Shown: positions 2,009 through 35,624, counted from the first letter of the stretch. The stretch is 64,000 nt of DNA from Anaerolineae bacterium (GCA_027021705.1 JALUTT010000077.1:32001-96000); one strand, 5' to 3'. Notes: generated by a model from the sequence alone, not told the origin. Numbers and translations: made by a program.

Positions 2009-2082
2009 GGCCCGCTAGCTCAATTTGGCAGAGCAGGGGACTCTTAATCCCTTGGTTGCAGGTTCGAGTCCTGCGCGGGTCA
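2009..2082 (+). tRNA. tRNA-Lys (anticodon CTT)
   Basis: Cloverleaf: GGCCCGC/GCGGGTC acceptor stem, TAGCTCAATTTGGCAGAGC D arm, CTCTTAA anticodon loop, GGTTCGAGTCC T arm. CCA is not fully encoded. Confidence 0.95.
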
Positions 2083-2085
2083 CCT
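2041..2085 (+). repeat. attL core (45 bp)
   Basis: ctcttaatcccttggttgcaggttcgagtcctgcgcgggtcacct, identical to 14589-14633. Confidence 0.95.
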
Positions 2086-2117: not shown

Positions 2118-2366
2118 ATGCCCAGACGGGTAGCTACCCTGGTGGACTGGGCTTTTGCCCCTGACTGGCTCACCGTCGAGAAGGCCGCCGAACTAACCGG
2201 CTACACCGAGGACTTCATCCGCTGGCTGATCCAGGATGGGGGCGTAGAAGTGAAGCAACAAGGCGATACGTGGCTCATCGAGAAGGCCAGTCTGCGTGAG
2301 TACCGGGACGCACTGCTGGAAACGCTCCAGTTGCAGCGTGACCTGGGGCTTGAGTCCGATGACTGA
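2118..2366 (+). CDS. Excisionase-like HTH (HTH_17/MerR-type) DNA-binding protein 1
   Basis: WLTVEKAAELTGYTEDFIRWLIQDG..WLIEKASL; the ORF-track start at 2025 lies inside the tRNA, so ATG 2118 is preferred. Confidence 0.75.
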   Translation: MPRRVATLVDWAFAPDWLTVEKAAELTGYTEDFIRWLIQDGGVEVKQQGDTWLIEKASLREYRDALLETLQLQRDLGLESDD

Positions 2367-2389
2367 GCCGGTGTAGCGCTGCACCCCAG

Positions 2390-2420
2390 GCCCCACCATC
2401 GGCAGGTGGGGCTTTGCTTT
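2390..2420 (+). terminator. Terminator after HTH1
   Basis: gccccacc/ggtggggc stem followed by tttgcttt. Confidence 0.6.
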
Positions 2421-2467: not shown

Positions 2468-2660
2468 GCGAAAAAAATTTTCCCCAGAAAAGTACCTATG
2501 GGTCCCCTGACTGGTGACACTGGTGACACTGGTGACACCGAGAAACTTAAGCGTAAATGTTTCCTTTATAAAGTGTCTTCTCCCAGGAGAAAGCCTGTCA
2601 CCAGTTGACACAAAAACTGGTGACAGGACTGGTGACACCGGTGACAAAACCGGTGACAAG
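2468..2660 (+). repeat. Iteron-rich long inverted repeat, left copy (putative ori/recombination locus)
   Basis: Multiple (ct)ggtgaca repeats plus AT-rich segments; near-identical in reverse complement to 13173-13350. Confidence 0.9.
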
Positions 2661-2706
2661 ACCGGGAGGAGAGCCATCACCGGCCTTCACCCTTTGTACC
2701 CTGGAA

Positions 2707-2742
2707 AAGCCTTCAAAGTCTTCAAAGCCTTCAAAGCCTTCA
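2707..2742 (+). repeat. 4 x 9-bp tandem repeat aagccttca
   Basis: aagccttca aagtcttca aagccttca aagccttca directly upstream of HTH2. Confidence 0.9.
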
Positions 2743-2758
2743 CCGGCCGTTGGCTGCA

Positions 2759-2992
2759 ATGGGCAAAGACTTCGACCCGACCGAATGGATCACCACCAAA
2801 GAGGCTGCCGAGTTGACGGGGTACCACGTTGTCCATATCCGTCGGCTTGCGAAAGCTGGCCGTATCAGGGGGATAAAGCGTGGACGCGATTGGTGGGTAG
2901 AGCGCGAGAGTGTACAGGCTTACGTTGAGGAGATGGAGCGGTTGGGCTCCGCCAAGCATGATCCTCGGCGGGTAGGCGTCCGTCAGAGATGA
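2759..2992 (+). CDS. Excisionase-like HTH protein 2
   Basis: WITTKEAAELTGYHVVHIRRLAKAGRIRGIKRGRDWWV; alternative start at 2750. Confidence 0.8.
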   Translation: MGKDFDPTEWITTKEAAELTGYHVVHIRRLAKAGRIRGIKRGRDWWVERESVQAYVEEMERLGSAKHDPRRVGVRQR

Positions 2993-2993
2993 G

Positions 2994-3022
2994 TTGACAC
3001 CCTCTTTTTTTTGTGGTATACT
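2994..3022 (+). promoter_or_regulatory. sigma70 promoter of the element's main operon (T8 tract in spacer)
   Basis: TTGACA-17 bp-TATACT with extended TG. Confidence 0.8.
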
Positions 3023-3108
3023 GTGTTCGCACGGGAACGGTCCTATCCCGTTTCTTTTTCCGGCTAAGTTAGTTCTCCAGAGAACACACACCAGCGAGGG
3101 AAATAGCG

Positions 3109-3330
3109 ATGTACTTGGGATACTGGGCAGAAGAGGTTTACCCCCGCCCGCTGGAGGACGATGGGCTTTGTGGGGAATGCGGCCGGCGACCGGCATCCTG
3201 GGGTGATTGGTTGTGCCCTCGGTGCCGCCGGCGGCTGGAGGAATCCCTGGCCCCGGATGCCGACGATACCGTCCAGAATGCCCCTGAGAGGCCCCAGGAG
3301 GCCCCAGGAGCGGCTTTTTCGGCAGAATAG
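3109..3330 (+). CDS. Small zinc-finger-like hypothetical protein
   Basis: CGEC...CPRC; GAGG-type RBS upstream; in operon order. Confidence 0.55.
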   Translation: MYLGYWAEEVYPRPLEDDGLCGECGRRPASWGDWLCPRCRRRLEESLAPDADDTVQNAPERPQEAPGAAFSAE

Positions 3331-3341
3331 GAGGGAGAACC

Positions 3342-3593
3342 TTGAGCGAAGTCCTTGAGGGGTGGATTACGGCAGCCGAGGCCGCAGCCTTGACCGGTTA
3401 TACTGTCCCTCATATCCGTCGCCTGGCCCGCCAGGGCCGGATTGAGGCCCAGAAGGTGGGCCGAGACTGGCTGATCGGCCGGGAGAGCCTGCTGGCCTAC
3501 AAGCGGCAGATGGAGGCCCTGGGCTCCCAGAAACACAACCCCTGGCGGGAGGACCTGGGGCGGCAAGGACGACGGAGGAAGGCCGATGACTAA
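3342..3593 (+). CDS. Excisionase-like HTH protein 3
   Basis: WITAAEAAALTGYTVPHIRRLARQGRIEAQKVGRDWLI, clearly paralogous to HTH2; strong RBS. Confidence 0.8.
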   Translation: MSEVLEGWITAAEAAALTGYTVPHIRRLARQGRIEAQKVGRDWLIGRESLLAYKRQMEALGSQKHNPWREDLGRQGRRRKADD

Positions 3594-3984
3594 CTGGCAA
3601 CATCCCAGGAAGAAACTGATCTCGGCCGCTGCCGATGCTTATCAGCGGGGCTGGGGAAGCATCGGGGAGTTGGCCGAGAGCGCGGTCCGACGGCACTATA
3701 TGGGCAAGTCACCGGACCGTGCCCTCCGGCTTTTCGTCCGAGACCTGTACCGCGAGGTGGTCCGTCGAGGAGACCCAGAATTTCGGCAGATGGTTGAGAC
3801 CCTCCACGCCGAAGGTTGGGAGTATCTCCCGATGGACGGTGTGGGGATGCGAGGAATCTTTTTCCATCGCCCCACCGGTAACCAAGTGAACCGGATGGGT
3901 GGCCCCTTCGATTCGTTTGAGGAGGCCGTCAAGGCAACCTACTACAGCGCGACCAGAGAACTCTTGCAAGAGGGGAACCGATGA
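3586..3984 (+). CDS. Hypothetical protein
   Basis: Overlaps the stop and start of its neighbours (translational coupling). Confidence 0.6.
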   Translation: MTNWQHPRKKLISAAADAYQRGWGSIGELAESAVRRHYMGKSPDRALRLFVRDLYREVVRRGDPEFRQMVETLHAEGWEYLPMDGVGMRGIFFHRPTGNQVNRMGGPFDSFEEAVKATYYSATRELLQEGNR

Positions 3985-4250
3985 CCGATACCCAGATCAT
4001 CCGGCTCACCACCCCGCTCCCCTGTGGGGTGATGCGTGAGGGAAACCGATGTGGACGACCGGCCTATGTGGCTTCCGCTACGCCGGTGGCTATGTCCGAG
4101 GACCCGGAACCGGACAACGTTGTGGCCGATCTGGTGGCCCGGATGTACCGGGGGCACTGGCTCATCCTGCCGGTGTGTGTGCAGTGTGTGCGTGACCTGT
4201 CCGAACGCTACCAATTGGAGGTGTCCGATGAAGAAAGCGCGACGACTTGA
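3981..4250 (+). CDS. Hypothetical Cys-containing protein
   Basis: ATGA overlap with upstream gene; C..C and CVQC motifs. Confidence 0.55.
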   Translation: MTDTQIIRLTTPLPCGVMREGNRCGRPAYVASATPVAMSEDPEPDNVVADLVARMYRGHWLILPVCVQCVRDLSERYQLEVSDEESATT

Positions 4251-4962
4251 GATCATCCCGCTGGTCCTGTGGCTGACCCTGGCCCTGGCAATGGTCGGCT
4301 CCCTGACGCACACCGCCTGGGCCTTCGCCACCCTGGAGGACGGGAACCTGACCGCCGGCTACATCCAGGCGGTGGCGGTGGACCTGGGCCTCTTCGCCCT
4401 GGCGTTCAGCATCCAGAAGCGCCGGCGGCAACGTCGCCCGACCTGGACCCTCTGGGCCGGAGTTGGGCTGTTCAGCGGAATCTCCGCCTACGCCAACCTG
4501 TTGCACGGGCTGGCGTTCCAGGGCCGCTTGCCCCTGTCAGGGTGGACGTGGCTGGCCTCCCTGCGCCCGTTCATCCTGTCGGGCGTCCTCCCCCTGCTGG
4601 TGCTCTACCTCTCCGAGATCATCTCCTCCGACGTTCAGCACGCCGTCCAGCAGGCCGAGCGGGAGCGAAAGCGGGCCGAACGGCTGGCCGCCCGCCGGCC
4701 GTCAACTTCAGAGCAACCCAACGCCTTCCCCTACGACATCGAACAGGCCAGAACCCAAGCCCTGGAACGCCGGCGCCTTAGCAAGGACCAGGCTCTGGAA
4801 CGCCTCCTTGACTTCCTGGCCGACCACCCGGACGCAAGCCTCTCCGAAGCCGGGCGGCACATCGGACGAAGCAAGACCACCGTCTCCAACTACCTGAACG
4901 AACTGGAGGAGAGCGGGCGCATCCGGCGGAACGGCCAGGGAATCGAGGTGCTGGCGAGGTGA
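4228..4962 (+). CDS. Multi-TM protein with C-terminal winged HTH (SpdA/DUF2637-like spread protein)
   Basis: About four TM segments, then a coiled region and HPDASLSEAGRHIGRSKTTVSNYLNELE HTH; directly upstream of FtsK. Confidence 0.65.
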   Translation: MKKARRLEIIPLVLWLTLALAMVGSLTHTAWAFATLEDGNLTAGYIQAVAVDLGLFALAFSIQKRRRQRRPTWTLWAGVGLFSGISAYANLLHGLAFQGRLPLSGWTWLASLRPFILSGVLPLLVLYLSEIISSDVQHAVQQAERERKRAERLAARRPSTSEQPNAFPYDIEQARTQALERRRLSKDQALERLLDFLADHPDASLSEAGRHIGRSKTTVSNYLNELEESGRIRRNGQGIEVLAR

Positions 4963-5127
4963 ACGGAGGTCCGGGGGCAGGTGTGCAAACGGGCGTTGGC
5001 CCACCTGCCGGGGAAAGGAAACCGCCGGCAGGTCTTGGACCCACCGGCGGAAGGGAGATGCCCGCGCGAGAACGCGGACACCCCAAGTATACAGGAAACG
5101 GTGCGAGTTGACAAGGGGAGGTGCCCA

Positions 5128-6717
5128 ATGAGGCGAGAACGAGGACTAGCCGTCACCGTCTTGCTCATCGCTGCGTTGGCCGTCTTCAGCGGATGGCAGC
5201 TTGCAGGGGGCATCCGCGACATCATCACCCGCGACGAACTCCGGGAGGCCGCCCGGCTGGAGAACGAACACCGCGCCCGGATGGAACCCTGGCGACGGGC
5301 GGGGAAGATAGCCGCAGGCGTCATCGGCCTGCTCACCCTGGCCGGTCTGGGGAGTGCCCTCATCGTCTACGCCCACCGACGGGCCGGGGAGATTCGGCCC
5401 GGCCCTGACGGCCAGTTTCCCATCATCCGGGTCCGAGTGGGCGGCGCTACGGTCCTACACGACCCCAACCGGCAGTTGGCCCCCACCGTCGTCTACACCA
5501 CCCCCCGACTGGCCCAGAACGTGGTGGTGATGCCGGTACTTCCCCCCGGCCTGGAGACCGAGCAGGTGGCCACCACCGCCCGCGCCCAGGCCGTCCAACT
5601 GGCCTCGGCGGTCAACAAACATCGGCCGGTGCTGACCGATGGTGGCGCACCGACGCACCCCCAACCCCTGGAGGACCGCCGGCAGGCCCTGGAGGACGCC
5701 CTGGCCCCCCTCTGGCCTACCCGGGTGCCCCTCACCGGCCTACTCAACGGGAGCCCCGTCAGCCTGGAGCGGCTGGTGTTGGGGGTGACCGTCCGCGAGG
5801 ACGGGCGGACAGAGGTTGTCCGGGGCGGGATGAGCAAGCTGGTCCACGTCGCCGTCGGCGGGAGCTCGGGTTGGGGCAAGTCCAACTTCCTCCGCGCCCT
5901 GGCCTACCAACTGGTCCTGGCCCAAGAGCGGCCCGACCTGGTGATGATTGACCTGGAGGGGGCAACCCTGGCCCCTTTCAGCCGGTCGGACCGGCTGCTC
6001 TACCCCCTGGCCGACACCGAGGACGACGCCCTGGCCGTGCTCCAGGCCGTCAACGAGGAACTGGACCGGCGCAAGGCCCTCTTCGGCCGGTATCCCGGCA
6101 CCGACAGCCTGGCGGCCTACAATGCCAGGGCCGAGGAGCCCCTGGCCCCCGTGATCACGGTCACCGATGAGGCGACGGCCTTGCTGGGCGACAAGCGGGT
6201 CGAGAAAGCGCTGAAGACCCTGGCCTTGAGGGGGCGCAAGTACGGCCTCTGGCTGGTCTTGGCGGGGCAGGACTGGAAGGCCAGCAGCCTCGATACCGCC
6301 ATCAGGAACCAGCTTGCGACGCGCGTCCAGTTTAAGGCCCTCAGCTCTTCCCAGAGCCGGGTGCTCTTGGGGCAGCCGGGGGCCGAGAAGCTGGAGGATG
6401 TGCCGGGGCGGGCCTTGGCCGTGCTGCCGGGCCGTGGCCTGGTCAAAATCCAGGCCCCCCACATCAGCCCGGCCGAGATTGAGCGGGCGCTGGCCGGTCA
6501 CGACACCGGAGCACGGCGGAACGTGCCGCGACCTGAGATGGACACCCGAGCCGAGACCATCCGGCAACTGGCGGCCCAGGGGTTGAGCCTGCGCGAGATT
6601 CAACGTCGGGTGTTCGGCTACGTGGGGGGAGCCGCTTACGATGAGGTCAAGCGGGTTCTGGAGGGCGGTACTGAAGGCGATACAGGCGGTATTACTGTAC
6701 CGTCTGGGGCCGTCTAG
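5128..6717 (+). CDS. FtsK/SpoIIIE-family DNA translocase (TraB-like)
   Basis: Two N-terminal TM segments; HVAVGGSSGWGKS Walker A, MIDLEG, VTDEA Walker B, GRKYG..LAGQ, PGRA; C-terminal HTH-like end. Confidence 0.88.
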   Translation: MRRERGLAVTVLLIAALAVFSGWQLAGGIRDIITRDELREAARLENEHRARMEPWRRAGKIAAGVIGLLTLAGLGSALIVYAHRRAGEIRPGPDGQFPIIRVRVGGATVLHDPNRQLAPTVVYTTPRLAQNVVVMPVLPPGLETEQVATTARAQAVQLASAVNKHRPVLTDGGAPTHPQPLEDRRQALEDALAPLWPTRVPLTGLLNGSPVSLERLVLGVTVREDGRTEVVRGGMSKLVHVAVGGSSGWGKSNFLRALAYQLVLAQERPDLVMIDLEGATLAPFSRSDRLLYPLADTEDDALAVLQAVNEELDRRKALFGRYPGTDSLAAYNARAEEPLAPVITVTDEATALLGDKRVEKALKTLALRGRKYGLWLVLAGQDWKASSLDTAIRNQLATRVQFKALSSSQSRVLLGQPGAEKLEDVPGRALAVLPGRGLVKIQAPHISPAEIERALAGHDTGARRNVPRPEMDTRAETIRQLAAQGLSLREIQRRVFGYVGGAAYDEVKRVLEGGTEGDTGGITVPSGAV

Positions 6718-6801
6718 GGCGATACCCGGTACCGGTAATACCGCCGGTACTGTAATACCGCTTGTCCGGGGAGCGGATACACCGGATTCTGGACGGTGGC
6801 A

Positions 6802-6870
6802 ACGGTGACAAGTGACGGTGACAAGTGACGGTGACAAGTGACGGTGACCGGTGACACCTGTCACCGTCAC
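6802..6870 (+). repeat. 3.6 x 13-bp tandem repeat acggtgacaagtg plus ggtgaca/tgtcacc palindrome
   Basis: Read directly; same GGTGACA core as the two long inverted repeats. Confidence 0.9.
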
Positions 6871-6943
6871 CCGGCAGCTTATCAACCGCCTATGCGTCAA
6901 CTGCCTATGTGTTAACCACCGTCACCTGCGGAGGGAGGGGAAG

Positions 6944-7417
6944 ATGCTAAGCGAGGCGGACCTGGAACGATTCTTCCGGCGGATGTGGGAGGAGCAGCGT
7001 CGGGGGCGATACCTTCTCCCGGAGGACCCCAGGCGCACCCTCGCCCGCCGGGTTGAGCGGGCAGTCATCCAGAAGCTCATCGGGCGGGGGCACCGGGTGA
7101 GCAAGGCTGCCCCCAACGAGCACTGGGACCTCTGGGCCGACGGGATCAGGATTGAGGTCAAGGCGGCCACCTGGCACGGACGCTACCAGGCGAATCTGAG
7201 GGGGAACGACGCCGACGTGCTCATCCTCGGCTGCGTCAACGGGGATGTCCACTTCTTCGTCATCCCCTTCGACCGGCTGGAGGGCCGACGCCACGTTGCC
7301 ATCTGGTCGCCCGACCCGGCCCGCTACCTGGGCCGCTGGGCGCCCTTCTACGAAGCCTGGGAGTGGCTGGACGCCCTGGAGGTCCGCAATCCCTGGCAAC
7401 TCCCGCTGTTCCCCTAG
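6944..7417 (+). CDS. Putative PD-(D/E)xK nuclease-fold protein
   Basis: E...HWDLWADGIRIEVKAA resembles the D...ExK catalytic motif; RBS GGAGG. Confidence 0.55.
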   Translation: MLSEADLERFFRRMWEEQRRGRYLLPEDPRRTLARRVERAVIQKLIGRGHRVSKAAPNEHWDLWADGIRIEVKAATWHGRYQANLRGNDADVLILGCVNGDVHFFVIPFDRLEGRRHVAIWSPDPARYLGRWAPFYEAWEWLDALEVRNPWQLPLFP

Positions 7418-7469
7418 TTTCAATCCCCCATCAGGCGGGAGAGGGTTTGCGACTTGGAGGGATGAAGCT

Positions 7470-7730
7470 ATGCTGACAGAACAGGAACGAATCTTGGAGA
7501 CCCAGGAACAAGTCTTGGAGACCTTGGACCGACTTGCCTCCTTGGTTGAGCTTGCCAAGGAGGAAGCCGAGAGATATGACCCGTTCGGCCTTCTCGAAAC
7601 TCGGCTTCGGCAGATCGAGCAGACCGTTCAGACCGTGCGCGACTTGGCCGGGGTGGGCAAGAAGAGAACCCGACTTACGATCACCATCACCGACCGGCCG
7701 TGGCTGCCGGGGCTGCCCTGGCCGCTGTGA
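7470..7730 (+). CDS. Hypothetical coiled-coil protein
   Basis: RBS GGAGG upstream; heptad-rich sequence. Confidence 0.55.
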   Translation: MLTEQERILETQEQVLETLDRLASLVELAKEEAERYDPFGLLETRLRQIEQTVQTVRDLAGVGKKRTRLTITITDRPWLPGLPWPL

Positions 7731-7742
7731 GGGAGGGGCACG

Positions 7743-8009
7743 ATGACTACCCTGATCGCAGCGTACAACTCTGAGGGCTGCATTGGCCGTTGTGACGCCA
7801 AGTGCTACAACGCCACCGGCCCCGACTGCGAATGTATCTGCGGCGGCCTTAACCACGGCGCAGGGGTGGAAAAGGCGATGGAGAACACCCGCGAGCTGGC
7901 CGAGGAGTGGATGCGGCAGTGGCGCACGGAGCACCCGGACACGGAATACTTCCTGGTCCCGGCGGCGCAACTGTCCTTGTGGGGCCTTCTGGAGGAAGGG
8001 CGATGTTGA
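7743..8009 (+). CDS. Cys-rich putative zinc-binding protein
   Basis: CDAKCYNATGPDCECICGGLNHG; strong RBS. Confidence 0.65.
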   Translation: MTTLIAAYNSEGCIGRCDAKCYNATGPDCECICGGLNHGAGVEKAMENTRELAEEWMRQWRTEHPDTEYFLVPAAQLSLWGLLEEGRC

Positions 8010-8197
8010 GGCTTCTGATGATCGCGCTGGTGCTGGTGTTGTCGGCCTTCGTGCCCGGTACGACGGTGGTTGAGGGAACGATGAAGGGGACGGCCACCCT
8101 CGGCCTCGCCCGCCTGACCATCGGGCGGGCGACGGTCCGCGTCACCCTGCACCCCTACCGGCCCAACCGGGTGTACTACCGTCTGGCGGTGACGTAG
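8003..8197 (+). CDS. Small secreted/membrane hypothetical protein
   Basis: Hydrophobic N-terminus MLRLLMIALVLVLSAF; coupled to neighbours. Confidence 0.5.
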   Translation: MLRLLMIALVLVLSAFVPGTTVVEGTMKGTATLGLARLTIGRATVRVTLHPYRPNRVYYRLAVT

Positions 8198-8599
8198 ATG
8201 GACGACCGGGATCGGCTCTGGGCAGCCTGGAGAGAGGAACAGGCAAGGCGCTGGCGGGCCTTCGCCGATTCCCTGACGCCGGATCAGCGAGAACTGCTCC
8301 GACGCTATGAGGAAGCCTGTCGGCAGGTGGCCCGGTTGCGCCGGATGGAATCGGCCCGGAGGCGCGGGCGGCCTTACCGGGGGCAGCCGGTGCCCCGGCC
8401 TTGGACCGAAGTCGGGGGCATCGTCCGGTGGCACGACACCCGGTGGCGCGTCGCCCGGCGCTACCGGATGAGCGAGGTGGGCAGGCTGGAAGCCGAGGAC
8501 CGTTGGCTGGTGGACCTGGAGCCGTTGGAAGAGGGATGGGACCCCTACGTGGGGGTCCCCGAGTCTGAAATCGAGGAATGGAACGATGAAAGTAAGTGA
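8198..8599 (+). CDS. Hypothetical protein
   Basis: Starts immediately after the upstream stop codon. Confidence 0.55.
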   Translation: MDDRDRLWAAWREEQARRWRAFADSLTPDQRELLRRYEEACRQVARLRRMESARRRGRPYRGQPVPRPWTEVGGIVRWHDTRWRVARRYRMSEVGRLEAEDRWLVDLEPLEEGWDPYVGVPESEIEEWNDESK

Positions 8600-8780
8600 C
8601 GATCTGGTGTTAGAAGCGTGGCGAGGAGAGCAGCCGTACTTTCTACTGCGCAGCCTGGGGCGGGAGGAAGGCGGACAGGGGGTGATCATCCTGCCCGACG
8701 AAATCCCCGCCCTGATTGAGGCGCTGACCGAGGTGGTGAACGATGAGCAACGACCTGGCGGTGACCCACAACGCGGCTGA
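8586..8780 (+). CDS. Hypothetical protein
   Basis: Short ORF bridging two overlapping genes. Confidence 0.45.
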   Translation: MKVSDDLVLEAWRGEQPYFLLRSLGREEGGQGVIILPDEIPALIEALTEVVNDEQRPGGDPQRG

Positions 8781-9702
8781 GTTGCTGAGGCGAGAGGACC
8801 TGCTGGCAGCGTTCGCGGCGTTCCTCCGGCTCAACGTCGCCGAGGGTGACGCAAGCGCGGCCACGGTGCGGACCTACTGGAGCCAGGTACGCCAGTACGT
8901 GGCCTGGTGCCGGGAGCGGGGGCTGGACCCGGCCCTGGCCTCGGAGCACGACCTGCTGGAGTACCGCGCCTGGCTGGCCGAACGCTACACGCGGGCGACG
9001 GTGGCCACCAAACTCGCGGCGGTGCGCCGGCTCTACCAGGCCGCCGTCTGGCGGGGGATGAGGGCCGACAACCCCGCTGCCGGCCTGAAGGCCCCGAAGG
9101 AAAAGACGGCCAGGGAGGAGCGGGTGAAGTTTCTGCCGCTGGAGGGGCTCAAGCGGCTCCTCCAGGCCCCCCAGGGCGACGGGGCCAAGGGCCGGCGGGA
9201 TAGGGCGATGCTGGCCCTGATGGGCGTCCACGGCTTGCGTGTAAGCGAGGTGGCCGGGCTGGATGTGGACGACCTCGACCTCGACCAAGGTCGGGTCACG
9301 GTCACCGGCAAGGGCCGGAAGACGCGCACCGTCTACCTGACGGAGCAGACCGCGCAGGCCCTGGCCGCTTGGCTGGAGGCGCGGGATCGGGTGGCCGCCG
9401 AGGATGAGCCGGCCCTGTTCGTCAGCCTTCGCCATCCTGACCCGGGCACCCGGATGAGCGCGAGGTCAATCCGCTACCTGGTGGACGGCTACCTGGAGCG
9501 GCTGGGGCTCAAGGGGGAAGGGATAAGCTGCCACAGCCTGCGGCATAGTGCCGCGACCTGGGCGCGGGCCGGGGGCGCGGCCCTGGACGCCATTGCCGGG
9601 ATGCTGGGGCATTCGTCGGTGACGACGACGCAGGTCTACGCCCGGATCGTGGACCGGATGACCGAGAACCCGGCCCGCTACCTGGAGGCCCTGCTGGGAT
9701 AG
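8743..9702 (+). CDS. Tyrosine recombinase (XerC/D-like, internal)
   Basis: SAM-like N-domain; GLRVSE, GKGRK, HSLRH, LGH and TQVY give a complete catalytic set. Confidence 0.92.
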   Translation: MSNDLAVTHNAAELLRREDLLAAFAAFLRLNVAEGDASAATVRTYWSQVRQYVAWCRERGLDPALASEHDLLEYRAWLAERYTRATVATKLAAVRRLYQAAVWRGMRADNPAAGLKAPKEKTAREERVKFLPLEGLKRLLQAPQGDGAKGRRDRAMLALMGVHGLRVSEVAGLDVDDLDLDQGRVTVTGKGRKTRTVYLTEQTAQALAAWLEARDRVAAEDEPALFVSLRHPDPGTRMSARSIRYLVDGYLERLGLKGEGISCHSLRHSAATWARAGGAALDAIAGMLGHSSVTTTQVYARIVDRMTENPARYLEALLG

Positions 9703-9859
9703 GGGAGGGAGGCTTGCTCTCGCCCTCTCTCCCCTTCCCAGGGAAAGGGCCGGTGCTTCCTGTTATTGGGATTATCGGAAGCAACGCTGACAGTCGTATA
9801 CTGTATAATCCGCATTTTGTCAAGGGCACTTGTGTTTGAACTGCCTACAGCAGTCGTTC

Positions 9860-9888
9860 TTGACACCTACAGGGAGGAGTGTTATAAT
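9860..9888 (+). promoter_or_regulatory. Consensus sigma70 promoter of the replication operon
   Basis: TTGACA(9860-65)-17 bp-TATAAT(9883-88) with extended TG. Confidence 0.88.
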
Positions 9889-9965
9889 CCTGCGTGTATA
9901 ACACAATGAGAGGGGACACTGGAGGAGGATGTGCCCACAGTGTCCCCTTTTGCTAGGAGGACACA

Positions 9966-10133
9966 ATGCGCAAACACTTCGTGGGGTTCCGCCTTGAGCC
10001 GCACCTGTATCACGCTTTGAAAACACAGGCGCGGCAGCGTGGCAACACCGTCTCTGAGGAGATTCGGCTGGCGATTCGGGAATACCTGAAGAAAAGGAGT
10101 AAAAAAACAAGGAGTAAACGATGGCTATCGTAA
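9966..10133 (+). CDS. Ribbon-helix-helix (CopG/Arc-like) repressor, 55 aa, not in ORF track
   Basis: MRKHFVGFRLEPHLYHALKTQARQRGNTVSEEIRLAIREYL; AGGAGG RBS; overlaps the primase start. Confidence 0.75.
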   Translation: MRKHFVGFRLEPHLYHALKTQARQRGNTVSEEIRLAIREYLKKRSKKTRSKRWLS

Positions 10134-13100
10134 CCCGTAGGAACGAAAGAAGGCCCGCTACAGCGGGGGATGCTGGCGGGCCGGGCGGGAATAACCACCG
10201 AGTTGTTTCTGCCCCACATTATACCCCAAATTCCCCCAACGGTCAAGTACCGCGCGAGGTCCTTGACGCAATCAAGGACCGCGTGGACTTCCCCCGCCTG
10301 TTCGAGGAGGTCTTCGGGATCACCTTGCCCCGTTCCCCCAACGGACGGGGGTCGGTGAAGGTCCGCTGCCCCCGGCCCAATCACCTCGACCGGGACCCGA
10401 GCTGTACCGTCTACCACAACCGCGTCCACTGCTTCGGCTGTAACTGGCACGCCGATGTCATTAACCTGGTGAGGGAGCGGTACGGGGTGGGATTCCGGGA
10501 AGCCGTGCGTATCCTGGCGGCTCAGGTCGGGTATCCGCTCTCCTCCCTCACCCCTGAGCAGGTCCAAGCGATGCAGACACAGCGGGAATACGAGGACGGC
10601 TTGATCCGGGCGGCAGCGTTCTTCCACCAACACCTGCTGGAATCGGAGGCCGGGATGGAGTACGCCCGGAGCCGCTGGTCCGAGGAGGCGATCCGGGCGG
10701 AGTGGATCGGCTTTGCCGACGGCTCCCCTCTACCCGACCTGGGCAACGAACAGGCTCGGCAGGTGGCGGAGGCCGTCAACCGCTGGGCGGCCCGGGTCGG
10801 CGGGGCCGTTGTCTACGCCCACCGACGGGGCGGGCGCGTTGTCTACCTCTCGGCCCGGTCCATCCGGGAGAAAAAACACTACAACCCCCCCGGCCGCTTC
10901 GCCGGTCCGAAACAGCCCTACGTCAACTCCGTCTATTCCTCCCGGTCCGACGAGGTGATCATCGTCGAAGGGCAGGCGTGCGCCATCACGCTGGCCGGGT
11001 GGGGCTTTCCTGCCGTCGCCCTGGCGGGAAGCAGTCCGTCCGAGGACCTGGCCCGGCTGCTACGGGGGGAGCGGGATGTCTACGTCATCCCCGACGCCGA
11101 CGGAAGAACCGATGTCCAGGGCTTGGTGGAGGCCCTGGGGCCACAGATCATCGTGGTCACCCTGCCGGACGGGGTTGCCGACGTGAACGACTGGGCACGG
11201 AAGGACGGGACGGCGGAGGCGCTGAGGGACCGCCTGAACGAGGCCCCGGAGTGGCTGGAGCAGCAGATCACAGAGATCGCCGAGATGCCGAAGGGCCGCC
11301 GGCGGGATAGGGAGATGGAGAGGGTGTTCCGGTGGCTGAAACCCCTTCCCCCCCTCGACTGGGAACGCTACGGGGCGTTGGTGTGCGAGGACCTAAAACT
11401 CCTCTCACGACGGACGTTCAACAGGATGCTCAAGCAGACGGAGGCCGTCGAGATCGAGGGCAACCGCTACCTGGTCCGAGAGGGGAGGCTGTGCATCGAG
11501 CACCGGAAGGACGGGGGACGCTACGTTGAGCCTCTGTGCAACTTCGCGGCCAGGGTGACGACCGACATCACCTATGACGACGGGCAAGAAACCGTCCGCC
11601 GTTTCATCGTAGAGGGCCAACTGGAGGACGGGACCGCCCTTCCCCCCGCCCTAGTGGACGCGGGCAAATTCCCGGACATGAAGTGGATCACCGAGGCGTG
11701 GGGATCGAGGGCCATCGTTGCCGCCGGACACGGGAAGCGAGACCAACTACGGGAAGCGATCCAGCGGCTTAGCGGTGAGGTGGTCACCAAACGGGTGTAC
11801 ACACACCTCGGCTGGCGACAGATTGACGGGAAGCGGTGCTACCTGCACGCGGGCGGGGCGCTGGGACACGACGGCGTGGAAGTGGAACCGGCAAAGGAAC
11901 TGACCCGCTACCGGCTGCCCAACGAGCCTGACGACGTGCGCGGTGCGATGGAGGCCAGCCTACGGCTTCTGGAGATGGCCCCTCTCCGGCTCACCGTCCC
12001 CCTCTGGGCGTCGGTCTGGTTGGCCCCCGTGTCGGAGATCGTCCACCCGGACTTCGTGCTCTGGCTCTACGGTCGGACGGGGACCTTCAAGAGCAGTATG
12101 GCGGCCCTCTTCCTCTCCCACTACGGCGGGCCGTTCACGGCCAAGGACTTGCCGGGGTGGTGGTCCACGGCCAACGCGCTGGAGAAGCTATGCTATCTCA
12201 CCAAGGACGCACTGCTGGTCATTGACGACTTCGCCCCGAAGAGCAACCCCCGTGAGGCCAGGGAGCAGAGGGCGACGGTGAACCGGATCATCCGTGCCGT
12301 CGGCAATCGGGCCGGCCGGCAACGGCTCAACCGCAACCTGCGCCTGCGGAAGTCCTACCCCCCTCGCGGTCTGGTCATCTCAACGGGGGAGATGATCCCC
12401 GGCTTGCAGTCCGTTGTAGCCAGGCTGTACGTTGTCGAGGTGGGGCAAGGAGACGTGGACCGGGAGCGACTGAGCGCGGCCCAGGCGGAAGCCGAACGAT
12501 ACCCCCACGCGCTGGCCGGATACGTGCTCTGGCTCTCGGAGCAGTGGGACGAACTCAGGCAATCGCTTCCCCGGCAACTGAGGGAGATCCGCGATAGACT
12601 GGTGTCGGAGGTAGGGGGAGAACATATGCGCCTCCCCAATGCACTGGCTATGTTGTACCTGGGATTTGACCTGGGGTTGCAGTACGCAGTTGAGGTTGGG
12701 GCTCTGAGTGAGGAAGAGGCAAACGGGTGGCGCAATGCCGGATGGACTGCCCTTACCGCGTCGGCAGAAGCCCATAGCCGCCAGGTGGCAGCCGAGAGCC
12801 CCACCGGCCTCTACTTTGAGGCCCTGGAGGAGTTGCTGGCCCAGAGGAAGGTGAGGCTTAAGTCTGTACAGGGCGGTTCCATCGTGGGATCGGAAGAGGG
12901 GGAACACATCGGATGGTACGACGATGACCACATCTACCTGCTTCCCCGGGTCGCATACAAAGCGGTCAACGACCTTCTCCGGGGCACGGGGCGAGACTTT
13001 CCCCTCGACGAGCGAGCGCTGCGCAAGTACCTGGCGGAAGAGGGGTATTTGGAACGGCAGGGTGAGCGGTACACCGTCCTAAAGCGGACACCGGCGGGGC

Positions 13101-13168
13101 GCCGGCACGTGTTGAAAATACGCCGGGAGCGGGTGACACTGCTCCCGGAGGAGGGTTCTCCAGGGTAA
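10121..13168 (+). CDS. Fused DNA primase-helicase (CHC2 Zn finger, Toprim, DUF927/SF3-like helicase)
   Basis: CPRPNH..HCFGC; IIVEGQ..PDAD Toprim; GRTGTFKS Walker A and LLVIDD Walker B. Confidence 0.88.
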   Translation: MAIVTRRNERRPATAGDAGGPGGNNHRVVSAPHYTPNSPNGQVPREVLDAIKDRVDFPRLFEEVFGITLPRSPNGRGSVKVRCPRPNHLDRDPSCTVYHNRVHCFGCNWHADVINLVRERYGVGFREAVRILAAQVGYPLSSLTPEQVQAMQTQREYEDGLIRAAAFFHQHLLESEAGMEYARSRWSEEAIRAEWIGFADGSPLPDLGNEQARQVAEAVNRWAARVGGAVVYAHRRGGRVVYLSARSIREKKHYNPPGRFAGPKQPYVNSVYSSRSDEVIIVEGQACAITLAGWGFPAVALAGSSPSEDLARLLRGERDVYVIPDADGRTDVQGLVEALGPQIIVVTLPDGVADVNDWARKDGTAEALRDRLNEAPEWLEQQITEIAEMPKGRRRDREMERVFRWLKPLPPLDWERYGALVCEDLKLLSRRTFNRMLKQTEAVEIEGNRYLVREGRLCIEHRKDGGRYVEPLCNFAARVTTDITYDDGQETVRRFIVEGQLEDGTALPPALVDAGKFPDMKWITEAWGSRAIVAAGHGKRDQLREAIQRLSGEVVTKRVYTHLGWRQIDGKRCYLHAGGALGHDGVEVEPAKELTRYRLPNEPDDVRGAMEASLRLLEMAPLRLTVPLWASVWLAPVSEIVHPDFVLWLYGRTGTFKSSMAALFLSHYGGPFTAKDLPGWWSTANALEKLCYLTKDALLVIDDFAPKSNPREAREQRATVNRIIRAVGNRAGRQRLNRNLRLRKSYPPRGLVISTGEMIPGLQSVVARLYVVEVGQGDVDRERLSAAQAEAERYPHALAGYVLWLSEQWDELRQSLPRQLREIRDRLVSEVGGEHMRLPNALAMLYLGFDLGLQYAVEVGALSEEEANGWRNAGWTALTASAEAHSRQVAAESPTGLYFEALEELLAQRKVRLKSVQGGSIVGSEEGEHIGWYDDDHIYLLPRVAYKAVNDLLRGTGRDFPLDERALRKYLAEEGYLERQGERYTVLKRTPAGRRHVLKIRRERVTLLPEEGSPG

Positions 13169-13172
13169 AGGC

Positions 13173-13350
13173 TGTCACCAGTGTCACCAGTTTTGTCACC
13201 AGTTTTTATGTCAACTGGTGACAGGCTTTCTCCTGGGAGAAGACACTTTATACAAGGAAACACTTACGCTTAAGTTCCTCGGTGTCACCAGTGTCACCAG
13301 TGTCACCAGTCAGAGATACAGGGTATCTTTTGGGAGAAAAATTTTTCCGC
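13173..13350 (-). repeat. Iteron-rich long inverted repeat, right copy
   Basis: tgtcaccag repeats; its reverse complement aligns with 2468-2646 with few mismatches in the core. Confidence 0.9.
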
Positions 13351-13366
13351 CTCTGGAGGGTAGACG

Positions 13367-13642
13367 ATGGGGTACCGGCTTATACTACCGTCTGTGCTCT
13401 CGGAAGTAGAGCGTCCGGCGCAAGGAGAACGGACCGAGCGCCCTTCCGCCCTTGTTCGGCCCCCCATCCCTGAGCCGGACTGGGAAGCGTTGGGCATCTG
13501 CTTTCCCCTGGACCTACGGGAGCTCCCTTGGGCGTGCGCAAGGCTGGAACAAGCCGGCTACGACGCCTGGGTTGAGGACGACGGATGGCAATTGGTCCTG
13601 CGATACCGCCTAAACACACAGACGAAGGGGGGTGAACGATGA
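13367..13642 (+). CDS. Hypothetical protein
   Basis: GGAGG RBS; ATGA overlap with the integrase. Confidence 0.55.
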   Translation: MGYRLILPSVLSEVERPAQGERTERPSALVRPPIPEPDWEALGICFPLDLRELPWACARLEQAGYDAWVEDDGWQLVLRYRLNTQTKGGER

Positions 13643-14595
13643 GACTTCTGGAGGCCGTTGATGCATTCTTGACCGCGACCAGGGCCGACGGTCGCAGCCC
13701 CAAGACGGTGGACAGCTACCGGCGGAAGCTGAAACCCCTGACGGACTTCCTGGGCGACGTGCCGGTCGAGGCGATCACCGCCGACGATCTACGGAAGTAC
13801 ATTACCGACCTGATGGATCGGCGGACCAGGTGGCGTGAGCACCCGAAGCACCGGGAACGGGAGGGTGGGCTTTCGCCCTTCACCGTCGCCGGTCACGTTC
13901 GGGCTCTCAAGCGGCTGTTCAACTGGCTGGAAGGCGAGGGGGTGATCACGAACAATCCCGCCCGCCGTATCAAGACACACCAGCCGAAACAGCGGACGTT
14001 GAAGGCGGTCTCCGTCGAGGACTTCCTGGCACTGCTGGCCACCACCCAGGGGGAAGGGGTGTCGGACCTACGGGATCGTGCTATCATCCTCTTCCTGGCC
14101 GATACGGGATGTCGAATCGGGGGGCTGTGTGGGCTGAGGCTGGACGACCTGGACCTGGAGGAAGAGGTTGCCTTCGTCACGGAGAAGGGGGGGAAGACGC
14201 GCCCGGTGCCCTTTACCACGGTGACGGCAGAGGCGTTGAGGGCCTGGCTGGCCGTGAGGCCCGACGCCGGCGAGTACGTCTTCGTCAGCCTGGGCAACAA
14301 GGCAGTCGGGCGTCTCACACCCAACGGGGTGCGGCAGATGCTGAGGCGACGGGCGAAGCAGGCCGGGATAACGCGGCCCGTCAACCCCCACGCCTTCCGG
14401 CATGCCTTTGCAAGGGAGTATCTGCTGAACGGTGGCGATCTGGCGACGCTTGCCGACCTGCTAGGGCACAGCAGCGTTGAGGTCACCCGGTTTTTCTACG
14501 CGAGGTTTCGGTACAAAGAGCTGAAGGAAAAGCACGACCGTCATAGTCCGGTAGCGCGATTAGTCGAGAAAGGAGGGCTCCGTGTCCGCTCTTAA
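13639..14595 (+). CDS. int: Tyrosine integrase adjacent to attR
   Basis: TGCRIG, EKGGK, HAFRH, LGH and FY motifs; stop codon lies inside the att repeat. Confidence 0.92.
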   Translation: MRLLEAVDAFLTATRADGRSPKTVDSYRRKLKPLTDFLGDVPVEAITADDLRKYITDLMDRRTRWREHPKHREREGGLSPFTVAGHVRALKRLFNWLEGEGVITNNPARRIKTHQPKQRTLKAVSVEDFLALLATTQGEGVSDLRDRAIILFLADTGCRIGGLCGLRLDDLDLEEEVAFVTEKGGKTRPVPFTTVTAEALRAWLAVRPDAGEYVFVSLGNKAVGRLTPNGVRQMLRRRAKQAGITRPVNPHAFRHAFAREYLLNGGDLATLADLLGHSSVEVTRFFYARFRYKELKEKHDRHSPVARLVEKGGLRVRS

Positions 14596-14633
14596 TCCCT
14601 TGGTTGCAGGTTCGAGTCCTGCGCGGGTCACCT
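14589..14633 (+). repeat. attR core (duplicated tRNA-Lys 3' half)
   Basis: 45-bp identity to 2041-2085. Confidence 0.95.
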
Positions 14634-34865: not shown

Positions 34866-35624
34866 CTACGCTTCCACAACGAACTGCAAAGCAGCGATCA
34901 GAGACGCGAACACACGCTTGATTTCCTCTTCGTCGGCCAGCGAGAGAAGCTTGCCGGCGAAGACGGCTGGTGACATTCCTAACCGGACTGTGGCCAGGTA
35001 GATTCGCACATAGTCCTTGGCCTCTCGCATACGGATGCCATTGCGTCGGAGCAACTCGGGGACTTCCTGACGGACCTTCTCTGCAAGGGCAGCCTCGCCA
35101 ACGCTTTCCAGGCCAATTCCTTGGAGCAGTCGCGTTGCGGTTCGAGGATGCAGGGCCAGAGCAAGCACGTAGTCATCTGTTGTAGACTTGGTGAACCGCT
35201 GCGACAGGCCGGGTATTGATGGGTAATGGGCGACATGAAGAGCCAGCCGCAGGTCCGGCTCATCCGATTGCCACGTGAAAACGTTAGCGTAGTCAGGATG
35301 AACAGCCAAGCTAGGCATTTTTGCAAACCCGCGCTCTTCAAAAAGGCGGCGGACAGTTTCTGCCACGCTCTGCCGGATGCTGTCGAGAGACTCGCCCTCA
35401 TCCTCGTCCAGATCCCGCATAACCAGACAGCGCACAGGCGCTGCACCGAGCTCCGGTCCCAACTCGTTTCTGATCGCCTGGATGACTTGTGCCTTGCCGC
35501 CTTTCCGCTCGCGCAGGCGTTTCTTCCAACCAGGGTTAAGATTGACGCTCAATTGGCGTTCCATCAGATGGATCACCACATTTTTCTCCGTATCCCCTTC
35601 AACGAATACGTGGGGCAAGTCCAT
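34866..35624 (-). CDS. Toprim-like (DUF3226/DUF4435-type) protein
   Basis: N-terminal VFVEGDTE and MRDLD acidic motifs; directly downstream of the ATPase. Confidence 0.55.
   Translation of the reverse strand: MDLPHVFVEGDTEKNVVIHLMERQLSVNLNPGWKKRLRERKGGKAQVIQAIRNELGPELGAAPVRCLVMRDLDEDEGESLDSIRQSVAETVRRLFEERGFAKMPSLAVHPDYANVFTWQSDEPDLRLALHVAHYPSIPGLSQRFTKSTTDDYVLALALHPRTATRLLQGIGLESVGEAALAEKVRQEVPELLRRNGIRMREAKDYVRIYLATVRLGMSPAVFAGKLLSLADEEEIKRVFASLIAALQFVVEA

Follow-up and report, generated by a model that had tools for sequence, protein, structure and literature searches.

Among the mobile elements whose replication loci have been described, phage P4 and the Staphylococcus aureus pathogenicity islands (SaPIs) provide the closest parallels to the locus considered here, a pair of inverted iteron regions within an integrated element in a 64,000-nt stretch (hereafter the window) of an Anaerolineae bacterium (GCA_027021705.1 JALUTT010000077.1:32001-96000). 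In P4, for which we rely on the annotated record NC_001609, the order on the minus strand is ori, ORF88, cI, epsilon, two further open reading frames (ORFs), alpha, a terminator, crr, the attP core and int. The P4 ori contains type-1 repeats (9310-9413), ORF88 is labelled "excisionase and transcriptional regulator", and crr (4291-4590, "cis required region for replication") is made up of two units of 120 bp, in each of which there are five type-1 repeats; both units align with ori once reverse-complemented, so that the P4 loci, too, are mutually inverted. In two reports, SaPI Reps are described as binding, through a winged helix, iterons located just downstream of rep, with iteron sets opposed around an AT-rich region; the wing of PriRep5 reads bases in the major groove, its iterons L2-L4 are 7-mers with AA between them and hence recur every 9 bp, and the melting points are proposed to lie at inverted iterons with 15-17 AT-rich bp between them (bioRxiv 10.64898/2026.10.17.759575; PMC9371898). 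The two inverted copies found in the window are probably twin, mirror-oriented origin loci of element-specific iterons (CTGGTGACA) that are bound by the initiator encoded by the element. On this reading of the sequence, the initiator, and not a helix-turn-helix (HTH) protein, would bind the iterons, replication would start there, and both loci would be needed.

The repeat search in the window returned two abutting inverted pairs, of 87 nt (I1, 2560-2646 / 13173-13259, 92%) and 60 nt (I2, 2507-2566 / 13254-13313, 97%), and the two arms are separated by 10,526 nt. In a MAFFT alignment, the core at 2507-2646 and the reverse complement of 13173-13313 (140/141 nt) are ~95% identical, with six mismatches and one indel, and weaker similarity extends beyond the core to 2468 and 13350. 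When the 193-nt copy A was compared by BLAST with the whole 5.19-Mb assembly, the only match besides itself was the minus strand of 13173-13350 (179 nt at 89% identity, E 3.7e-59). The exact 9-mer CTGGTGACA occurs 14 times in the window, with six occurrences in copy A, seven in copy B and one at 34967; if up to one mismatch is allowed, there are 25 matches, compared with 14.25 +/- 3.9 in shuffled sequences, and 0 of 100 shuffles reached 25. The tandem form CTGGTGACA-N0-3-CTGGTGACA is present seven times in the whole genome, each time within the two copies, while the reversed control of this pattern was found nowhere in the genome. The first 17 kb contain the 7-mer core GGTGACA 21 times, always in one of three loci, namely copy A (8), a mid locus (5) and copy B (8). 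The positions of these features are as follows.

2468..2658, plus strand: copy A (arm A), high-identity core at 2507-2646, as delimited by repeat search, alignment and 9-mer positions
2511, 2520, 2529 (plus), 2596-2604 (inverted), 2617, 2629, 2638, 2650 (plus): 9-mers of copy A, with a 58-bp spacer at 2538-2595
6794..6888, plus strand: third cluster of the GGTGACA core, with ACGGTGACAAGTG three times at a 13-nt period, followed by CGGTGACA-CC-TGTCACCG
13173..13350, minus strand: copy B (arm B), inverted, high-identity core at 13173-13313
13173, 13182, 13194 (minus), 13215 (plus), 13283, 13292, 13301 (minus): 9-mers of copy B

Each copy is composed of three tandem 9-mers with a 9-bp period, an AT-enriched 58-bp spacer, one inverted 9-mer and then three or four more (+++ / 58-bp spacer / - / ++++ in copy A). 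The gap between the 7-mer cores of the inverted iteron pair is 16 bp long and 69-75% AT, and the sole palindrome in the repeat is an iteron pair with a 12-nt spacer (TGTCACCAG-N12-CTGGTGACA). An earlier note on this stretch had aligned 2468-2646 with the reverse complement of 13173-13350 around a ~140-bp core, which is borne out by the repeat search, MAFFT and BLAST, and had noticed several 9-mers within the copies, where 13 of the 14 exact occurrences in the window are indeed located. It had also placed one copy right after the primase-helicase gene, and this holds to the nucleotide scale: the stop is at 13168 and the first 9-mer of copy B at 13173, so that copy B begins 5 nt past the stop. 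The AT-rich stretches mentioned in that note, on the other hand, are to be understood as moderate enrichment of the spacers (59% in copy A and 54% in copy B versus 35% in the element) and not as extreme AT tracts. The iteron palindrome at 13192-13225, which begins 24 nt past the primase-helicase stop, also scores as a terminator-like hairpin, and the same palindrome is found in copy A at 2594-2627 on the minus strand; the annotated P4 record has a separate terminator at the position matching the hairpin at 13192-13225.

The protein encoded immediately upstream of copy B is a primase-helicase of 1,015 aa. Its N-terminus is a DnaG-type primase, with a CHC2 zinc finger (Pfam) and a PDB profile match to 2AU3 (E 7e-34). 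The last 590 aa, modelled by AF2 from 19 sequences (pLDDT 85.7), match SaPIbov1 Rep (8TCH) over the whole length (Foldseek E 1.2e-16, TMt 0.64) and the SCCmec protein Cch (5DGK, DUF927) almost equally (E 2.3e-16, TMt 0.63), whereas superfamily 3 (SF3) helicases (PriRep1, PriRep5, D5/E5 and SV40 T antigen) reach only E 1e-4 to 1e-3 with the same model. In another AF2 model (pLDDT 80.9), the last 250 aa superimpose on residues 366-561 of 8TCH with a Z score of 9.9 over 188 residues, and the terminal ~120 aa form a winged helix comparable to TcpK on oriT (Z 8.3) and to the ORC/Cdc6 winged helices (Z 4.3-4.6); as modelled, the C-terminal domain is an initiator-type winged-helix DNA-binding domain. 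With Cch, the window protein has in common DUF927 and the fold of the helicase and C-terminal domain; in SCCmec, the primase and helicase are reportedly separate proteins, unlike the fusion in the window, and we know of no iteron origin that has been defined there. The likeness to the SaPIs encompasses, in addition to the C-terminal winged helix, iterons that start just past the ORF, opposed arrays around an AT-rich region, the 9-bp period and an inverted pair ~16 bp apart. However, SaPIs are described with one ori, whereas the window has two full copies and a third cluster; moreover, the window primase is DnaG-type and fused, and the window element, plasmid-like and integrative, carries an FtsK-like gene and is not a phage satellite. 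The iterons are thus most likely bound by the C-terminal winged helix of the element's own primase-helicase-initiator, and the helicase would load and melt DNA at the AT-enriched spacer or at the inverted iteron pair with its AT-rich 16-bp gap.

The element that carries the two copies is 12.6 kb long and sits in tRNA-Lys(CTT), bounded by exact 45-nt att repeats at 2041 and 14589. The tRNA 3′ end is directly repeated beside the integrase, and the attP form is present in a relative (L045); the att repeats and the tRNA-Lys, which the earlier note does not mention, show that the element is integrated. Homologues of the right flank in three genomes of the same family are 68% identical and have no tRNA nearby, and thus provide no empty-site evidence. 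All genes called between the att repeats are on the plus strand, and their order from attL to attR is hthA, copy A, hthB, hthC, a winged-HTH protein, the FtsK ATPase, four ORFs without a family match, Rec2, the primase-helicase, copy B, a small ORF and the tyrosine integrase.

2009..2084, plus strand: tRNA-Lys(CTT), integration target (ARAGORN)
2041..2085, plus strand: attL, tRNA 3′ end, 45-nt direct repeat, 100% identical to 14589-14633
2166..2366, plus strand: hthA, HTH_17 gene beside attL and candidate excisionase (Pfam HTH_17, E 2.5e-7; ORF listed as 2025-2366, start approximate)
2388..2414, plus strand: terminator-like hairpin past hthA
2750..2992, plus strand: hthB, HTH_17, excisionase/regulator-like, first gene past copy A (Pfam E 4e-11; PHROG excisionase/regulator families)
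3342..3593, plus strand: hthC, second HTH_17 protein after copy A (Pfam, PHROG)
4981..6717, plus strand: FtsK/SpoIIIE-family ATPase, candidate DNA-transfer protein (Pfam E 8.3e-12; PHROG 1358, E 2.3e-40)
8743..9702, plus strand: Rec2, second tyrosine recombinase (Pfam Phage_integrase, E 1e-34)
10121..13168, plus strand: primase-helicase-initiator (CHC2 Zn finger, DnaG-type primase, DUF927 helicase, C-terminal winged helix)
13367..13642, plus strand: small ORF between copy B and int (orf13367), no family match
13639..14595, plus strand: tyrosine integrase (Pfam E 2e-33)
14589..14633, plus strand: attR (repeat search)

By coordinates, the integrase ORF, stop included, runs 7 nt into the att core, and the TAA there was read by eye. 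Homologues of hthA come after Int-attP in L045 and L056, those of Rec2 are found in L031, L105, L026, L056, L102 and L077 with conserved placement upstream of the primase-helicase, and the relatives have an ORF placed, like orf13367, directly behind their iteron triple. Two more matches to the primase part are present in the same genome (G000:C124:26999-27883, 33%, and G000:C161:13068-13523, 32%), of which one may be the chromosomal DnaG and the other may belong to a second element.

In the predicted excised circle, the two copies are 1,741 nt apart and flank only orf13367, int, attP and hthA, so the 10.5-kb core that the earlier note saw bracketed by the copies is bracketed in this way in the integrated state and is the long arc of the excised circle, in which the copies flank a 1.7-kb integration module. 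The order in the circle, copy A, hthB and the following genes, initiator, copy B, orf, int and attP, is that of P4. Both elements have two separated loci of one short iteron, one behind the primase-helicase beside attP-int and the other upstream of an excisionase-like HTH gene heading an operon, and in both, the units combine direct iterons with a single inverted iteron and an AT-rich spacer; the P4 iteron (GGTGAACA) is one base longer than the GGTGACA of the window. Copy B, directly behind the initiator gene, would correspond in position to P4 crr and to the SaPI ori, and copy A, before the first HTH gene of a long operon, to P4 ori. Nevertheless, the window helicase is not alpha-like (BLASTP E 0.1; hhalign probability 34%, for the primase part only), the two loci of the window are near-identical copies of 140 nt where P4 crr consists of two 120-bp units in tandem, nothing but the integration module occupies the short arc of the circle, and the window element, whose relatives have Chloroflexota hosts, lacks capsid-hijack genes. 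By analogy, we take the element to work in the manner of P4 ori/crr, but with a SaPIbov1-Rep/Cch-lineage initiator, and not to be a member of the alpha family. The bipartite-origin option and the comparison with P4 in the earlier note are accordingly well supported by the gene order, the relative inversion of the loci and the winged-helix C-terminus of the initiator.

The primase-helicase family is a small one, with 39 hits, nine of them at 48-52% identity over at least 92% of the query. Metagenome contigs yielded 246 confirmed stretches and metagenome-assembled genomes (MAGs) 103, of each of which the best 80 were retained as loci (L-numbers), and synteny was established by self-BLAST of 30 loci and by tblastn on 21. 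The relatives are 36-52% identical and belong to Chloroflexota (among the MAGs, Thermoflexus, Anaerolineae, other Chloroflexota and a few other labels). In 60 relatives' genomes, the initiator gave weak matches (up to 39% identity over part of the query), most of which we read as chromosomal DnaG. A limited literature search on Chloroflexi integrative plasmids met no description of a primase-helicase integrative plasmid family.

The relatives keep the design with 9-mers of their own, and the space between the copies is empty or occupied by an integrase of either the tyrosine or the serine type. L045, an episomal form, has primase-helicase, iteron triple, Int, an att core whose 45 nt are identical to those of the window, hthA, a complete iteron unit, hthB and hthC. 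L056 is a contig of 18,153 bp with a 123-nt overlap (100%) between its ends and hence probably a complete circle; it has inverted triples before Int and before hthB, and encodes the primase-helicase, two tyrosine recombinases, and FtsK-like, ParM-like, DUF1064 and AAA_24 proteins. The actin-like ParM genes of L045 and L056 fit plasmid maintenance. The layout of L030 is window-like, with copies at 170-339 and 12741-12915 (82% identical) and a large serine recombinase after the copy behind the primase-helicase; L029 extends L030 by 1,158 nt without closing a circle. In L040, a serine recombinase behind the primase-helicase iteron set is followed by a phosphorylase gene, which may be host DNA. 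The arms of L026 are 370 bp apart, with only the first codons of a serine recombinase (MPRKVQTA) between them, and the comparison of L026:4516-4884 with L030:12916-13095 and 1-170 makes L026 look like a deletion derivative of an L030-type element. In L169 and L057, the arms are 107-114 bp apart, directly behind the initiator gene. No tRNA gene was found on any of 16 relatives' loci.

The five contigs that span both the initiator 3′ end and the hthB 5′ region (window, L026, L030, L045 and L056) all have inverted iteron sets, as would be expected if homologues keep the inverted pair, a check that the earlier note had called for; on its 16.8-kb contig, however, L042 shows one set, so that some members of the family may have a single copy. 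In all five of the spanning contigs, a full unit stands before hthB, while the set behind the initiator is full in three and reduced to a triple in two, the triple of L056 being displaced by 2.3 kb of cargo. Among 27 loci that include the initiator C-terminus, 23 have at least 150 nt downstream, and 16 of the 23 have a clear array at the initiator stop codon; L076 is borderline, and no array at the stop was detected by 7-mer count in six (L056, L065, L102, L109, L111 and L183). Two further functions considered for the iterons were rejected. A role as partition sites does not fit the ParM-like genes of L045 and L056, which are not beside the iterons, nor the window element, which has no such match, and a role as integrase arm sites does not fit the arrays that persist with serine recombinases and without any integrase.

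The iterons are specific to lineages and have a (C)TGGT-like half in common, as listed here by locus.

CTGGTGACA: window, L040
(G/A)CGGTAACA: L026, L056, L044/L046, L042
GTGGTTACA: L030/L029
CTGGTG(C/A)GA: L032
CTGG(T/A)CAAA: L045, L053, L047
GTGGGAA: L080, L076
GTGGTCATG: L169
CCAGTGAG: L057

Evidence on the reader of these sequences comes from a near-identical pair, L026 and L030, the arrays of which consist of GCGGTAACA and GTGGTTACA, respectively. The DNA of the two elements is 92-97% identical over the initiator and FtsK regions, and yet all 14 exact 7-mer cores counted in each differ (GGTAACA versus GGTTACA). The two initiators have an overall identity of 91%, and in 40-aa blocks over residues 41-920 it is 88-100%, whereas in the last two such blocks, where the wing lies, it drops to 72% and 35%. 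In L045, L053 and L047, a common wing accompanies a common CTGGTCAAA, and a tree built without the last 110 residues places L047 with L032, despite the wing and iteron that it has in common with L045 and L053. In alignment A3, read by hand, an Arg where wing strand beta-3 ends accompanies iterons ending in ACA in eight of nine loci (L057 being the exception), and W, P or N at that position accompanies other iteron endings in all eight loci in which it occurs; on the tree from which the C-terminus was left out, this makes at least three switches necessary. In DNA runs X2 and X3, a variant of the window element that is 90-97% identical has no match over copy A (2422-2697), the mid cluster (6756-6885) and 11642-13485 (the C-terminal half of the initiator and copy B), which is suggestive of a further specificity swap.

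Several side observations concern the same regions. At L053:9254-9640, four tandem modules come after one primase-helicase gene. Every module has an iteron triple, a T-run and a ribosome-binding site together with the start of one and the same small ORF, but no two of the triples agree (GACCGGTTT, GGACCGGTT, TTACCGGTC and GTTACCGTT), which is what a stack of origins with several specificities might look like. The arm spacers of L026 and L030 (e.g. L026:4925-4985 and L030:230-290) contain two CCCCCATATATGGGGG-type palindromes each, which are conserved between the two elements despite the changed iterons and may be the site for a second, unchanged protein. The initiators of L026, L044, L045, L053, L032, L102, L169 and L047 end in an acidic tail followed by IPF, VPF, ISF, IEF, IHF or IVF, an ending that is absent from the window protein and that resembles the C-terminal tip of bacterial single-stranded DNA-binding protein (SSB); in L032 and L047, the first iterons double as codons of the acidic tail (ETGATGETGE and ETGQTGQTGQ).

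The attribution of iteron binding to the wing has to be weighed against several points. The wing alignment is uncertain for distant members, the iterons adjoin the coding region of the C-terminus, so that linkage alone could give part of the co-variation, and near-duplicate loci (L029/L030, L044/L046 and L053/L054) inflate the counts. The window and L040 have GGTGACA in common with dissimilar wings, and GGTAACA occurs with four dissimilar wings; since the same iteron is found with dissimilar wings, there is no simple code. The spacers are just 54-59% AT, and L056 has no iterons directly past the initiator gene, its sets lying before int and before hthB. In L026 and L030, moreover, hthB from the recognition helix onward and hthC throughout diverge in step with the iterons, beyond blastn detection, and all three clusters of the window are intergenic and upstream of plus-strand genes, as operators would be. 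An HTH protein could therefore be the reader, with the 9-mer arrays serving as operators at which hthB and/or hthC co-regulate the hthB operon (copy A), the orf6851 unit (mid locus) and orf13367-int (copy B). This explanation, which we regard as unlikely, would also agree with the arrangement in the relatives, where the inner triple precedes a T-run and a ribosome-binding site that lead into the ATG of the next ORF, and with the fact that L026 and L056 have in common both GGTAACA and the hthB-helix FRQL (5 sequences only). However, a search with the sigma-70 consensus found no sigma-70-type promoter in either copy, a promoter used in one of the mirrored copies would point antisense into a gene end in the other, the arrays stand at the initiator stop in 16 of the 23 loci, most of which have no hthB or hthC homologue on the same contig, and the design matches the experimentally defined origins of the SaPIs and P4. 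Binding by the initiator is thus the reading retained here.

The third cluster, five GGTGACA cores at 6804-6859 between the FtsK-like gene and the next ORF with a head-to-head pair at its end, goes unmentioned in the earlier note, appears to have been replaced in the X2/X3 variant and brings in another possible reader. TraB of actinomycete plasmids reads 8-bp repeats placed past its gene, and the mid cluster of the window lies directly past the FtsK-like gene, so the 9-mers might be regarded as clt-type recognition sequences for the FtsK/SpoIIIE-like transfer ATPase. This is extremely improbable: L026 and L030 have FtsK genes with 96.7% DNA identity and yet not a single iteron in common, which indicates that the FtsK ATPase is not the reader, and by 7-mer core count neither element has a cluster near its FtsK gene. 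For the third cluster, copy control or regulation are guesses. Extra iteron clusters such as incC/incA of P1 and incB/incC of F bind the same initiator as the origin and control copy number by titration or handcuffing, and the second copy and the mid cluster might both act in this way; the initiators of P1 and F, however, are of RepA/RepE type and not helicases, and their extra arrays are not full mirror copies of the origin.

The inverted arrangement of the two copies admits of explanations other than a two-locus origin. The yeast 2-micron plasmid is a small replicon in which long inverted repeats carry the FRT sites of the tyrosine recombinase Flp, and the window likewise combines long inverted repeats with a tyrosine recombinase on a small replicon. 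The pair could thus be a substrate of Rec2, which would flip the DNA between the copies as a switch or for amplification of the 2-micron kind. The second recombinase gene is conserved in several relatives, and inverted repeats of 140 nt at 95% identity would permit inversion at least by homologous recombination. Nevertheless, L030/L029 keep both copies with no tyrosine recombinase match at E <= 1e-4 (on contigs of 15.3 and 13.5 kb, which are perhaps incomplete), the module between the copies keeps one orientation with respect to the initiator gene in all four elements compared (window, L045, L056 and L030), and the arms of L026, L169 and L057, only 107-370 bp apart directly behind the initiator, have the layout of an origin. 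No Flp/Xer-type core, with two short inverted sites around 6-8 bp, is apparent in the repeats, the only palindrome being iteron-N12-iteron. In Logan contigs of four DNA runs (X1-X4), those of X1 break at both copies (2536/3105 and 13238/13284), as expected at repeats, and no inversion, excision or empty-site joint was found, although contigs that break at repeats could not exclude one. The invertible, amplifying architecture that the earlier note had offered as an alternative is accordingly regarded as very improbable, no support for it having been found. Recombinases beside replication genes often serve in plasmid multimer resolution, a role that may be compared with the position of Rec2 beside the initiator.

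The slot directly behind the iteron set next to the primase-helicase holds a tyrosine integrase and an HTH_17 gene in the window, L045 and L056, a large serine recombinase in L030 and L040, and a remnant of a serine recombinase start in L026; both flanking sets are on the contig in all of these except L040. This variety could mean that the copies are mainly homology arms for swapping integration modules between related elements and that protein binding is secondary. We consider this quite improbable, as the iterons differ between lineages, which restricts such homology to a lineage, and as the iteron architecture, the third cluster and the single compact arrays are left unexplained. An extension of the twin-origin reading, itself rather doubtful, would assign the slot a function: the twin origins would act as a sensor of excision and would, at the same time, frame the exchangeable-integrase slot. 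Integration at attP, which lies between the mirror copies, would move them to opposite ends of the element, and only excision would bring them back together across the 1.7-kb arc, on which a pair of initiator hexamers could join or loop them. In this manner, licensing of replication would be tied to the excised state, and the same copies would frame the slot in which tyrosine and serine integrase modules are exchanged between related plasmids.

If the two copies are twin origin loci, the two-locus iteron origin of the P4 style would extend to the Cch/SaPIbov1-Rep helicase lineage, here fused to a DnaG-type primase, and to little-known Chloroflexota integrative plasmids from hot environments. 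L026 and L030 would represent a natural specificity swap, in which near-identical elements differ in every iteron and in the helicase wing, and such swap pairs could help to work out how origins are read by self-loading helicases. Finally, the location of the integration module between twin copies, together with the interchangeable integrase types, offers a testable idea on how elements of this family may be built up.

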